A DNA stretch of 22,254 bases from the IMG/VR virus record IMGVR_UViG_2648501165_000020, one strand, 5' to 3'. Below are positions 9,001 to 12,000 of this stretch, one piece after another. Each line of letters opens with the position of its first letter. Position 1 is the stretch's first letter. Made by a program: the position numbers. The stretch comes from a virus (lineage: Duplodnaviria; Heunggongvirae; Uroviricota; Caudoviricetes).

Positions 9001-12000
9001 TACCATTTCCTGATGCCCGGCCATTGTGCCGGGTTTTTTTATGGAGTCTGTATGGCCTATTCAGAGGAACAGCGTCCTGAGGCGCAACTCGGTAACCAGA
9101 ATCGTAACAGCCTGAACATTCAGCAACCCGGCGAAACTGACAGCTATGAAGCATTTTTCTCTGATCCGAATCGCTGGAAGGATAACAGTACGTCGTTCAG
9201 CCTGGGCGATGTATTGCCAACAATGGGTAAAGGTTTCGCCCAGTCCGTCCGGGGAACAGGGGAAATGGCCCGTGGACTCGGTGATGCGATGATTCAGAGC
9301 CCGGTAAAAACAGGGGCGCGTATTTTAAATGAGTTCAGCCGTATGGGGCTGCCGGGTGTCGCAACTGTGCAGGATATTTTTGCCGGTGGCAGCAGGGGGG
9401 CTGATGAGGTCATCGATACCCTGCCTGATGGCAAAAACGCGGTTACTGATACTGTCGGTAAAGGTCTGAAGGCAACCGGTAAGGCTGTCAGTGATGGTGC
9501 CAAAGCCACTGATGAATGGCTGACCGGTAAGATGTCGCCGGGTGCAGTTCGTGCGCTGAATACGCCGATGACCGAAGGCTATAATGATTCTGCGGTCTGG
9601 GTGGCGAAGGGTGTAAACCTGATTGGTGCGCTTGTACCTGATATGGTTGCTGGCGGTGTGGCTAGAAAGGTGGGTGATGTCACACTGCGAAAAATGCTGA
9701 CCGCCGGGCTGGAGAAAAAATACATCGCGGCAGGGATGCAGCCGGAAAGAGCCACGGCACTGGCAGCAGAAGCTGTCGATAAAAAAATGCCGGATTTATT
9801 CCAGGCGGGCCTGATCACCCATTCCACTGTAAGTGCACAGGGGCAGAGTGCAATGGCGGCAGCAGATGCTGTTCTTAATGCTGATTACTCTGAGCTGGCG
9901 CAGTCACCGAAATTTCAGCAGACGTTTTTGTCCATTGACGCCGACCCGCAGCACGCACAGCTTACTGATCGCCAGAAAATGGATCTGGCAAAAGAGCGTG
10001 TTGCCGATGAGGTGCGCGCGCAGCTGGCAACCGATCCTGAATTGCTGGCTGTGAATGCCATGGCGGCAAAACTGGGTGACGCACAACTGTTTAATCTGGT
10101 GACACGAGGCACAGCGAAGACCGTTAAAAGCGGCATTGTCAGAAATGCCACGGAACAGGGGGCGATTAATGCGGCGCAGGGCGGCTATTCACGCTATCAG
10201 GAAAACACGGCATTGCGTGAGACCGCCGGAATGGGTGTGTCACCGTGGGAGGGCGTGGCTGACGCAACGATCGAAGGTGCAGCCTTTGGTGCTGCGATGG
10301 GGGCTCCATTCGGTGCGGTTGCCGGATATCGTGGCAGACGTCAGGCCGCAGAAGAAACCGCCATGCGTGATGCTGAAACCGTGCAGCAGGACGACGCAGC
10401 CCCGCAACCAGAATCTGTTGATCCGGTGGCGCAGCAGCGTGAATCCATGCAGGGCATGAATCGCGAGCAGCTTCTGGAGCAGTATGCTGATGCGGATATG
10501 GCAACAGAGGGTGACGCATCCGCAGCTCATCGCCGGGAAGCTGCCAGCCAGTTGTTGAATGAACTGGACGAACAGACGAAGCGACAGGCTGTGATGAATG
10601 AGCTGAAGGCGAAGCCGCGTTCTGAACTGCTTGAGGAATACCGCAGACTCAGCCAGAAAGAGGGGCGCACCGAGACTGAAGAACAACAGTTTCAGGCAAT
10701 ACGAGAAGTCATTCGCCCACAACAGGAAGTGACGCCGGAAGCACAGTCACAGCCTGAAAATGCGGAGGATGGTAACGGGAGCATTTACCCGACGGTGCGG
10801 TTCCGGGACCCGAATGAAGTCCGCATTGAAATTAACGGGAATGGTGCGTCCAGACCAGCGGAACGCATTGAGAAGGTGCGCCCGGACAACCGTTATTTCA
10901 CGGATGAGAAAAGCGCCATGGGGAGTGATGTTTTCCGTAATGCCGCCGCCACCGGCCTGAAACCGTCCGTAGTGAAGAAAGGCGAGAATCAGTATGCCGT
11001 TGAAATGGATAATCCTGCGTTCTCTGAAGATGTGGCAACGGAAACCATTAACACCCTGGCTGACGGAGAGCGTATTGCTGATGCTGACCCGATGGAGCAG
11101 CCCGCGTTCATGCGTGACCCGCGATTCCGTGGTGTCACGGGGGATGATACGGAGGTACAGGCCCGCCTTGCCCGTGGCAACGCGCCGACGGCAGAGGAGC
11201 TTGTACGTTCACAGATGGCTGAAGGTGATGCCGGTCCGACAGCACAGGAGTTAACTGAGCGTCCACGCCTGCCCGCTCCCGGCGATATTCATCCCGGACA
11301 GGGATATCCGTTACCGGGAGAAGTGGCGCGTACGCCGGATGAAAATCAGGCCGGACGTGGTGGTCGTTTTACCACAACCGGTGAGGTTAAGGGCCAGAGT
11401 TTCCAGAAAGGACAAGCTCCGGCACCGGAAAACGCCGCTGGTCGCCAGGGGGAAACACTCGAGGGTGACATGGTTCGTCGTGGTCTGCCGTCACCGGATG
11501 CGCAGAACGCGACAGCACCGGTACGTGAAGGGCTACCGGCTCCTGACATTGCGCGTAATGTTCGTATGCCTCAGCCTGAATCACTTCCCCGCACTGTACG
11601 GGACTCACTGCCTGAGCTTGCACAGCAGGCAGAAGTACGCCGACAGGCCGGAGGAAATCGTGACATCCCGCAGCCTGAGACAATCGCACCTGAATCTGAA
11701 ACAACTGTCTCTACTGACAGGGAAGCTACCGTGCGCGGAGGTGAAGTCAGGGGCAAAAAAATTGAAGACTTTGGTGAAGAAATTAAGGGCGCGGCAAAAC
11801 ACCGTTATGCACAGCTTGCTGAAACACTGGGTAAAACGCTGGAAGACAGGGATTATGCCACGCAGCCGCTGAGCAAACTGTTCCCGAAACCGGACTACGC
11901 AAAACTGGCGAACGAAGGTGCTGATGCTGATACCCTGGCAATGATAGCGCTATATCGTAGCGATATTCCGGCGAAGACGAAACACAATACGGCAGGCTGG

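Follow-up and report, generated by a model that had tools for sequence, protein, structure and literature searches.

The window analysed here, a stretch of 22,254 nucleotides, is the late region of a Sp5/933W-type short-tailed lambdoid Stx phage, and it raises the question of how a very large gene lying downstream of a gene expressed in lysogens is kept silent until induction. In phi24B, lom mRNA is equally abundant in lysogenic and induced cells, whereas the mRNA of the giant gene (CM7) rises only upon induction (Riley 2012), a behavior that the authors considered surprising because the gene is located downstream of lom. In a Sakai growth-transition list, lomW is the sole member of the Sp5 genes ECs1236-1242. 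The products concerned belong to the particle: in the phi24B proteome, genes 1, 2 and 4 and the giant gene all yield virion proteins, infectious Sp5 requires ECs1241 and ECs1242 (Mondal 2016), and the giant protein is a proposed ejection protein. The original prediction had placed an intrinsic-terminator-like hairpin ahead of gene 1 and another ahead of the giant gene, and the sequence at both places reads exactly as described, far beyond what chance would yield (Table 1).

Table 1. Features of the late region discussed in the text; positions refer to the window, except those marked L106.
Feature	Position	Strand	Description
pR'-like promoter-like site	L106 3158-3185	same strand as late genes	
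tR'	L106 3421-3449		placed by the 258-nt transcript length in Sy 2020 (PMC7547250)
lom (ECs1236)	4681..5415	+	upstream of the hairpins; expressed in lysogens
terminator directly after lom	5439..5463	+	opens a row of four + strand terminators leading from lom to the giant gene
orf133 (ECs1237)	5845..6246	+	first gene of the cross-genus module orf133, genes 1-4, giant gene
terminator-like hairpin within the orf133 coding sequence	5948..5980	+	nucleotides nearly invariant in all relatives
hairpin 1, intrinsic terminator	6298..6324	+	8-bp stem GACCCTGC/GCAGGGTT, tetraloop TCCG, T6-G-TT; between orf133 (ECs1237) and gene 1 (ECs1238)
SD AGGGGG (6329-6334) and ATG 6340, gene 1 start	6329..6342	+	SD is GAGGAG in relatives; start of PGAP and the Sakai annotation, 218 aa
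gene 1 (ECs1238 / Sp5 ORF76 / phi24B gp51)	6340..6996	+	virion protein; 218 aa
gene 2 (ECs1239 / gp50)	6999..7445	+	virion protein
gene 3 (ECs1240 / gp49)	7455..7706	+	glycine-zipper protein with the annotation 'bacteriocin'; weakly represented in virion preparations
gene 4 (ECs1241 / ORF79 / gp48)	7717..8982	+	essential virion protein
hairpin 2, intrinsic terminator	9015..9041	+	7-bp stem GCCCGGC/GCCGGGT, loop CATTGT, T7; separates gene 4 (ECs1241) from the giant gene (ECs1242)
SD GGAG (9043-9046) and ATG 9052, giant-gene start	9043..9054	+	invariant in all relatives
giant gene (ECs1242 / ORF80 / phi24B gp47)	9052..17433	+	2793 aa; LPD5, LPD1, MuF_C and LPD38 domains; essential, encapsidated
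terminator-like hairpin downstream of the giant gene	17892..17920	+	probable end of the late operon

In hairpin 1 the core CCCTGC (6300-6305)-TCCG-GCAGGG (6310-6315) extends to 8 pairs (6298-6317), five of them G-C, closing a loop of 4 nt and followed by T6 (6316-6321) and GTT; hairpin 2, with the core CCCGGC (9016-9021)-CATTGT-GCCGGG (9028-9033), extends to 7 pairs (9015-9034), six of them G-C, with a loop of 6 nt and a T7 run at 9034-9040. Both thus consist of a GC-rich stem with a loop of 3-8 nt and a U-rich tract directly 3' of the stem, and both occupy the sense strand in non-coding sequence, 53 nt (hairpin 1) and 34 nt (hairpin 2) after the upstream stop codon. Folded alone, hairpin 1 reaches -14.6 kcal/mol (z -4.3; none of 200 shuffles equally good) and hairpin 2 -13.2 kcal/mol (z -2.8; 4 of 200), stabilities that equal that of tR' in the same phage (-14.5 kcal/mol). 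The opposite strand lacks a T run at either hairpin, so that both act on the + strand only. A strict scan (mismatch-free stem of 6 bp or more, 5 or more GC pairs, loop of 3-8 nt, at least 6 T in 7) returned 7 distinct sites in the window (14 nested registers), both hairpins included, against a mean of 0.055 and a maximum of 3 in 200 dinucleotide shuffles, while a loose scan gave 32 terminator-like sites where 18.7 +/- 4.1 were expected. Rfam returned no match at either hairpin, whether at gathering thresholds or at E-values up to 1 across 5300-9300.

The structures have also been maintained in evolution, with compensatory changes in both. The stem of hairpin 1 is invariant in E. coli phages, where 14 of the 43 upstream intergenic columns vary (Fisher p = 0.009), and in Salmonella-like relatives one C-G pair has become A-U by compensatory change; 1 of its 8 pairs is changed on both sides with 100% of cells paired, a covariation that is weak on its own because it represents a single event. 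Across 8 distinct variants of hairpin 2, again 100% of cells are paired, and 2 of the 7 pairs are changed on both sides. Three allele classes retain all 7 pairs, with G-C to A-U at one pair, G.U, A-U or G-C at another and C-G or U.G at a third; RNAalifold predicts the same stem. A run of T6-T9 is retained in all relatives, including lineages with an unrelated stem sequence. Judged from sequence and its conservation, both hairpins are canonical one-directional Rho-independent terminators.

The retained T run also bears on the idea that the stems serve as protectors of RNA 3' ends, which after endonucleolytic cleavage would shield the orf133 and genes 1-4 segments from 3' exonucleases and thereby tune their half-lives. 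Stable GC-rich stems are indeed found right after stop codons at several gene-block boundaries, but a stabiliser needs no T run, and we know of no processing sites in the late transcript here; such a role appears quite improbable. Even less probable is a larger fold built around hairpin 2, in which sequence following the gene 4 stop codon would pair with the giant gene's SD and AUG and couple translation of the giant gene to the end of gene 4 translation. The outer pairs proposed by RNAalifold (columns 15-26 with 67-80 of alignment A3) cover GGAG and the AUG with variation that is entirely wobble-compatible, and AUUCCAU pairs with AUGGAGU in the single-sequence fold. However, no such pair is changed on both sides, the share of paired cells is only 80% in the version tested, the z of -2.1 of the 69-nt fold derives mostly from the hairpin itself, and the motif is not evident in distant lineages, short complementarity of this kind being likely by chance.

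The original prediction also took the hairpins as an argument for ATG 9052 and ATG 6340 as the starts of the genes that follow. For the giant gene the start is disputed, at 9013 in RefSeq VT2-Sakai and PHANOTATE and at 9052 in PGAP and the Sakai annotation. In relatives, ATG 9013 is replaced by ACG or ATA while GGAG-N5-ATG 9052 does not vary, distant homologues (27-34% identity) start at the residue matching Met-9052, and the published complementing ECs1242 clone begins at 9018 and hence without ATG 9013. For gene 1, relatives carry frame-breaking indels of 1 and 2 nt upstream of ATG 6340, the start adopted by both PGAP and the Sakai annotation; these indels, together with the loss of ATG 9013, back the intergenic status of the hairpins. 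Neither the N-terminal peptide AYSEEQR... nor its extended alternative (...GFFYGVC...) is among the phi24B peptides listed, the most N-terminal of which cover residues 19-41 (giant protein) and 12-27 (gene 1 product) when numbering begins at ATG 9052 and ATG 6340. The sequence comparisons thus support ATG 9052 and ATG 6340 as the true starts, which would settle two disputed start codons.

Both hairpins are located inside a single Q-dependent late operon of about 36 kb, downstream of Q, a pR'-like promoter and tR', which are found on the same strand about 28 kb upstream (Sp5 map), and no promoter for the downstream gene intervenes. In Stx phages of this type, late transcription starts at pR' and relies on antitermination by Q, and tR' stops pR' transcripts in lysogens (Sy 2020, PMC7547250). 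The hairpin at L106 3215-3243 was considered as tR' and rejected, since the 258-nt transcript of Sy 2020 puts tR' at 3421-3449. The pR' transcript has a similar hairpin at +24 to +52, which evidently passes enough polymerase in lysogens for StxS synthesis. A Term-seq dataset of Sakai is available as GSE143631. Along this operon about 10-12 intergenic terminators follow one another, the two hairpins among them: 7 of the 8 strict + strand matches in the Sp5 late operon are intergenic, non-coding sequence making up 8.9% of the span (binomial p = 3e-7), several gene-block boundaries have such a hairpin, including those after the portal and major capsid genes, and the one downstream of the giant gene probably marks the end of the operon.

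The spacing of the two hairpins is telling in this context, as the 18 nt from the T run of hairpin 1 to ATG 6340 and the 11 nt from that of hairpin 2 to ATG 9052 contain an SD and nothing else. They leave no room for a promoter, and genes 1-4 and the giant gene therefore depend on transcription through the hairpins. We infer that transcription terminates at both sites in lysogens and reads through them in a Q-dependent manner, and we give a probability of roughly three in four to the hairpins being functional terminators that silence the downstream genes in the lysogen and are overridden by Q upon induction. Internal late-operon terminators overridden by Q are an already known kind of arrangement. 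In the lysogen, polymerase unmodified by Q, which would start at accessory promoters of lom or hok or at stray promoters, would halt at the hairpins, and four successive stops (5439, 5948, 6298 and 9015) would keep the virion and ejection-protein genes silent, above all the 8.4-kb giant gene. Upon induction, polymerase loaded with Q at pR' would pass these and roughly ten other terminators and reach the end of the giant gene. The published data fit insulation combined with antitermination, and the requirement for antitermination put forward in the original prediction agrees with the Q/pR' setting, the short gaps, the presence of the downstream products in virions and the induction dependence of the giant gene. 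The hairpins would, moreover, explain the puzzle of Riley 2012, i.e., an 8-kb gene downstream of lysogen-expressed lom that remains silent until induction. Termination without Q appears to be incomplete, since the plasmid complementing ECs1242, in which by our reading of the primer the hairpin and T7 were rebuilt between Ptac and the gene, still complemented.

Whether this arrangement extends beyond the Stx phages was addressed with a protein library clustered at 50% and an alignment-driven scan of IMG/VR. In 25 of the 28 distinct distant prophage loci (27-67% identity over the giant N-terminus), the 140 nt ahead of the giant ATG contain a terminator, against a same-strand background of 0.022 terminators per 140 nt, and these terminators comprise at least 7 unrelated hairpin sequences. 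The position of hairpin 2 is thus kept across genera while its sequence turns over, which argues for ongoing selection. The distant loci themselves carry no host label; named protein relatives point to hosts in Salmonella, Serratia, Yersinia, Pectobacterium and Dickeya. Three of the distant loci, compared with isolate phages by megablast, gave no match, and tblastn matched only Stx phages and, weakly, Vibrio phages. A protein search with gene 4 listed none besides E. coli relatives, at identities of at least 80%, and the single match in a genome-contig scan with the same gene, a 552-bp contig labelled Xanthomonas pisi (98% identical), is probably contamination.

In the distant loci the terminator adjoins the 5' end of the giant gene even where extra genes intervene after gene 4, and it therefore appears tied to the giant gene and not to the gene upstream. 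This observation also speaks for partial attenuation, by which a fixed share of polymerases would be stopped during lytic growth, so that mRNA would step down along the operon and the dose of giant protein would be set with respect to genes 1-4. Partial termination is among the possible roles listed by the phage L authors (PMC8022706), and the hairpins behind the portal and major capsid genes of Sp5 are likewise compatible with it. Against such dosing, the estimated phi24B virion copies are similar across hairpin 2 (gp48 ~30, gp47 ~19; gp51 ~22 and gp50 ~36) at an accuracy of 1-3-fold, copy number being itself a weak proxy for synthesis. Moreover, Q-modified polymerase is, as general knowledge of lambda Q indicates, strongly resistant to terminators. 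We regard partial attenuation as unlikely, though worth keeping in view, and the alternative offered in the original prediction, hairpins as determinants of giant-protein stoichiometry, finds little support, the difference between gp48 and gp47 falling within the error of the estimates.

A more specific reading is that the terminator 10-30 nt before the RBS of the giant polyvalent-protein gene is a conserved checkpoint specific to genes of this class and that, with the second conserved terminator, inside the orf133 coding sequence at the module's head, it constitutes a two-gate control of the ejection-protein module, common to Escherichia, Salmonella, Serratia, Yersinia, Pectobacterium and Dickeya prophages. 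This proposal is a doubtful one; if true, synthesis of a possibly harmful ejection protein, encoded by 8-14 kb, would depend strictly on processive antitermination, or would be delayed or dosed.

Hairpin 1 has a narrower distribution, being missing in more distant relatives, where the stop codon of orf133 overlaps the start of gene 1. This absence, the expression of lom in lysogens and the changes in composition in this part of the window could indicate that the hairpins are remnants of module junctions with no present downstream role, hairpin 1 being the terminator of a moron cassette (lom, hok, orf133) and hairpin 2 a leftover junction. At hairpin 1 the GC content indeed passes from about 43% to 50-57% and the AT skew changes sign, and lom is more divergent than its surroundings, the change occurring near 5400-5500. 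However, a mosaic breakpoint was sought at hairpin 1 and identity is unbroken there; orf133 is not accessory, as it is the first gene of the cross-genus module and is kept with genes 1-4 in all distant relatives; and hairpin 2 has an essential virion gene on either side. Taken together, these points make an origin as mere remnants very improbable, and termination relieved by Q remains the preferred reading for both hairpins.

Among the closest known systems is the pR'/tR'/Q control of lambda, 21, 82, 933W and H-19B, which belong to the same phage group: tR' and the hairpins agree in form and in stability, and the genes downstream are late and dependent on induction. Unlike the regulatory tR', however, the hairpins described here are internal terminators, 25-28 kb inside the operon, and their Q-dependent read-through is deduced. 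As internal terminators validated by evolution, such sites form a natural set with which the resistance of Q-modified polymerase, in terms of distance and completeness, could be gauged along 36 kb of a phage of medical importance. In T7, T-phi is an internal late terminator after the major capsid gene that is partially read through and shapes relative expression, in a phage that has its own polymerase and no antiterminator; the Sp5 counterparts of T-phi are the hairpins after the portal and capsid genes, not hairpins 1 and 2.

Morons such as those of HK97 and HK022, or lom and bor of lambda, are lysogen-expressed accessory genes of the late region with their own terminator (PMC3594210). The terminator directly behind lom (5439) matches this pattern, and hairpin 1 closes a lysogen-expressed stretch. 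Terminators are present at 5439 and 6298 and lom is active in lysogens; a consensus scan revealed no convincing sigma-70 promoter upstream of lom, hok or orf133. The absence of hok and lom from the distant loci suggests that these two genes may be morons. In contrast, orf133, upstream of hairpin 1, is part of a conserved structural module and does not behave as an insertion, the composition shifts lying near lom and hairpin 1, and hairpin 2 splits two essential virion genes.

The P22-like phage L also has predicted Rho-independent terminators between blocks of virion genes in a one-promoter operon, whose roles, according to its authors, are not known; they propose partial termination or the blocking of spurious, non-antiterminated transcription (PMC8022706). 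The same two roles are candidates for the terminators within the operon studied here, which belongs to another lineage with other genes, and in which the position before the giant gene is conserved across several Enterobacterales genera and the stems show covariation. A terminator conserved in front of genes for giant polyvalent proteins offers a small, testable contribution to the question of what terminators inside late operons are for.

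The region between 5400 and 9400 is 100% identical to short-tailed Stx-converting phages of the Sepvirinae (VT2-Sakai/Sp5, PA2 and many Stx2a phages), and at least 80% of it is covered by a match in 419 of 5,426 complete E. coli genomes. All its genes lie on the + strand, according to a map compiled from RefSeq/PGAP, phage records and the ORFs tabulated by Mondal et al., and the giant protein carries LPD5, LPD1, MuF_C and LPD38 domains. The original prediction placed terminator-like hairpins ahead of gene 1 (hairpin 1) and of the giant gene (hairpin 2), and when the window was re-read both sequences agreed with it to the letter. 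Each is followed by an SD sequence (AGGGGG and GGAG, respectively), with 18 nt between the T run and ATG 6340 and 11 nt between the T run and ATG 9052; since the opposite strand lacks a T run at either site, they would act on the + strand only. Folded in isolation, hairpins 1 and 2 reached -14.6 kcal/mol (z -4.3) and -13.2 kcal/mol (z -2.8), the value for tR', the terminator of the same phage that ends pR' transcripts in lysogens (PMC7547250), being -14.5 kcal/mol. A loose scan of the window picked up 32 terminator-like sites where 18.7 ± 4.1 would be expected, and a strict one 7 distinct sites against 0.055 expected (200 dinucleotide shuffles). Judged from sequence, the two hairpins display every property of intrinsic terminators.

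Positions of the features discussed (window coordinates unless marked L106, the VT2-Sakai record)
Feature	Position	Strand	Remark
Palindromic hairpin	178-198	both	T runs either side (AACCGGAGCCCGGCTCCGGTT)
Minus-strand terminator	609-629	-	GGGGGAGCATATTGCTCCCCT then T6
Tail genes	up to 4590
lom (ECs1236)	4681-5415	+
Weak sok match	5499-5661	+	Rfam, 35.6 bits
hok/sok-type locus	5499-5788	+
Hok/Gef gene	5648-5788	+
orf133 (ECs1237)	5845-6246	+
Hairpin in orf133	5948-5980	+	ACGCCTGC-CTTAAAAA-GCAGGCGT then TTTGTTTTG; -14.0 kcal/mol
Hairpin 1	6298-6324	+	CCCTGC-TCCG-GCAGGG (6300-6315), stem extending to 8 pairs, T6
Gene 1 (ECs1238)	6340-6996	+
Gene 2 (ECs1239)	6999-7445	+
Gene 3 (ECs1240)	7455-7706	+	annotated 'bacteriocin'
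Gene 4 (ECs1241)	7717-8982	+
Hairpin 2	9015-9041	+	CCCGGC-CATTGT-GCCGGG (9016-9033), stem extending to 7 pairs, T7
Giant gene (ECs1242)	9052-17433	+	2793 aa
hok/sok-type locus	18448-18770	-
Full-score sok match	18596-18770	-	112 bits
sRNA-Xcc1 (RF02221) match	21075-21163	-	69 bits
pR'-like promoter	L106 about 3160-3190
Hairpin upstream of tR'	L106 3215-3243		T7; -12.1 kcal/mol
tR'	L106 3421-3449

Among Stx-phage relatives, hairpin 2 occurs in three allele classes: A (GCCCGGC...GCCGGGT, T7), to which this window belongs, B (ACCCGGT...GCCGGGT, T7; GER2, Lyz12581Vzw) and C (GCCCGAC...GTCGGGC, T7-T9; PhiR12_3 and others). All 7 pairs are intact in each of the 8 distinct sequences, two pairs having changed on both sides and one on a single side to a wobble. 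In the 5' spacer, classes A and C share only about 50% identity; RNAalifold independently returned the same stem. The stem of hairpin 1 does not vary among E. coli phages, with 2 of 32 columns variable in the hairpin and its flank against 14 of 43 in the upstream intergenic sequence (Fisher p = 0.009), and in Salmonella-like relatives (AAACCTGC...GCAGGTTT) it shows one compensatory C-G to A-U change. Only the Escherichia and Salmonella-like clade has this hairpin; more remote relatives lack it, and in them the stop codon of orf133 overlaps the start of gene 1.

The same comparisons bear on the translation starts, for which ATG 9052 and ATG 6340 had been proposed, and both are upheld. PGAP and the Sakai genome annotate the giant gene from 9052, RefSeq VT2-Sakai and PHANOTATE from 9013; classes B and C have ATA and ACG, respectively, in place of ATG 9013, GGAG-N5-ATG 9052 is unchanged throughout, and all distant homologues begin at the residue aligned with Met-9052, sharing the motif M-A-Y-x-P-x-Q-x-R-P-E...LNIQQPGE. 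A Salmonella entry bears the same spurious N-terminal extension, in which its own hairpin and T run are translated (MPGIMTGFFIYGVY), and the complementing ECs1242 clone begins at 9018. For gene 1, relatives carry 1- and 2-nt indels upstream of ATG 6340. The records of vB_EcoP_phi346 and RefSeq VT2-Sakai (L106 31067) start the giant gene at the non-conserved ATG 9013, within the terminator hairpin, and the former (L002 12614-21033) divides it into two CDS. Separately, sequence following the gene 4 stop can pair with the giant-gene SD and AUG (8991-8997 with 9041-9047, 8994-8997 with 9052-9055), enclosing hairpin 2; variation among close relatives is all wobble-compatible, with no pair altered on both sides.

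Conservation ahead of the giant gene extends much deeper. The N-terminal 450 residues of the giant protein recovered relatives of 2,000-4,600 aa at 27-34% identity; those protein relatives that are named belong to Salmonella enterica, Serratia, Yersinia, Pectobacterium and Dickeya (genera taken from protein names, not from IMG/VR loci). An alignment-driven IMG/VR scan returned 78 loci, and the module running from orf133 through genes 1-4 to the giant LPD38 gene (5845-17433) is kept in prophage loci L229-L262; in some of them gene 4 and the giant gene are separated by one or more additional genes. Of 28 distinct distant loci, 25 have a canonical terminator no more than 140 nt 5' of the giant-gene ATG (same-strand background 0.022 per 140 nt), with at least 7 different hairpin sequences among them, e.g., AAGCCTCGC...GCGGGGCTT, AAGCCTCACT-TTTT-AGTGGGGCTT and AGCCTC-ACAAC-GAGGCT. 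Its position tracks the 5' end of the giant gene and not the end of gene 4, and the remaining junctions inside the module mostly lack a terminator.

The VT2-Sakai late operon spans about 36 kb, from Q and the pR'-like promoter to the giant-gene end (L106 39487). Coding-strand terminator-like hairpins occur along it ahead of stx2A and behind stx2B; downstream of the portal gene, the capsid gene and the gene that follows the latter; 3' of orf59 (short tail-fiber C-terminal gene), directly ahead of orf60; and downstream of lom, within orf133, ahead of gene 1 and at both ends of the giant gene. Seven of the 8 strict sites are intergenic, in a span of which 8.9% is non-coding (p = 3e-7). Neither gap between T run and start codon leaves space for a promoter, so that genes 1-4 and the giant gene would be transcribed only by polymerase passing the hairpins, which lie where override by Q antitermination is expected. 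In the prophage, unmodified polymerase arriving from accessory genes or stray promoters would be halted by four successive terminators (5439, 5948, 6298, 9015), and upon induction Q-loaded polymerase from pR' would proceed through all of them. Silencing in the prophage followed by Q read-through is the best-supported reading, in line with the location, conservation and induction pattern. In phi24B lysogens, lom mRNA was equal before and after induction and that of the giant gene (CM7) rose, which surprised the authors because the giant gene is downstream of lom (PMC3342100); lomW is the sole entry among ECs1236-1242 in the Sakai growth-transition list. Termination is probably not absolute: to judge from its sequence, the primer of the published complementing clone (GGATCC-CGGCCATTGTGCCGGGTTTTTTTATG) would restore the whole stem of hairpin 2 with its T7 downstream of Ptac and ahead of ECs1242, and the clone still complemented.

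Antitermination had been proposed together with a second option, that the hairpins set the stoichiometry of the giant protein. The latter is less likely, given comparable numbers of copies per virion for the genes on either side of hairpin 2: virion proteomics of phi24B gave about 19-35 for the giant protein gp47, against 30-56 for gp48 (gene 4), 36-73 for gp50 (gene 2) and 22-41 for gp51 (gene 1) (preprint 10.64898/2026.04.10.717836). No cryo-EM density was seen for gp47, proposed to be an encapsidated ejection protein (same preprint); infectious Sp5 particles require ECs1241 and ECs1242, and ECs1238 deletion markedly reduced infectivity (PMC5155283). The gene 3 product had only sub-threshold Pfam matches (glycine-zipper and class IIc bacteriocin models) and was dismissed as a contaminant at its low level in phi24B virion preparations (preprint 10.64898/2026.04.10.717836); since different genera keep the gene in the ejection-protein module, its product may be a minor membrane-active component of the virion.

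Other elements were also noted. The strong terminator-like hairpin in orf133 (about codons 35-45) is nearly invariant, synonymous sites included, among relatives with ~50% amino acid identity and barely alignable flanks, which points to an RNA or DNA element embedded in the coding sequence. The terminator-like hairpin upstream of tR', spanning roughly +24 to +52 of the pR' transcript as predicted, must either leak or serve a different function, given that lysogens make a 258-nt transcript and the StxS sRNA. The palindromic hairpin separates the short tail-fiber C-terminal gene from the ORF after it, and the minus-strand terminator in the following gap hints at an unannotated minus-strand transcript within the late region. 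Of the two hok/sok-type toxin-antitoxin loci, one has a sok match under gathering score overlapping the Hok/Gef start, and the other adjoins a MokW-like gene; the sRNA-Xcc1 match, over gathering score, falls in the early-left region.

Overall, the original observation is correct and well-supported, and the element of an ordinary kind; what is added is modest, namely the deep positional conservation ahead of giant polyvalent-protein genes, a proposed solution to the puzzle of why lom and the giant gene are expressed differently, and two resolved start codons. The papers searched contain no account of these particular terminators, and the word is absent from the Sp5 genetics paper (PMC5155283). 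In phage L, blocking of transcription that is not antiterminated is one of two roles suggested for intra-operon terminators, whose roles, in the authors' words, 'are not known' (PMC8022706). A reading of hairpin 1 as simply a moron terminator fits less well, because the adjoining orf133 belongs to the conserved module; the hairpin nevertheless ends the stretch expressed in the lysogen.
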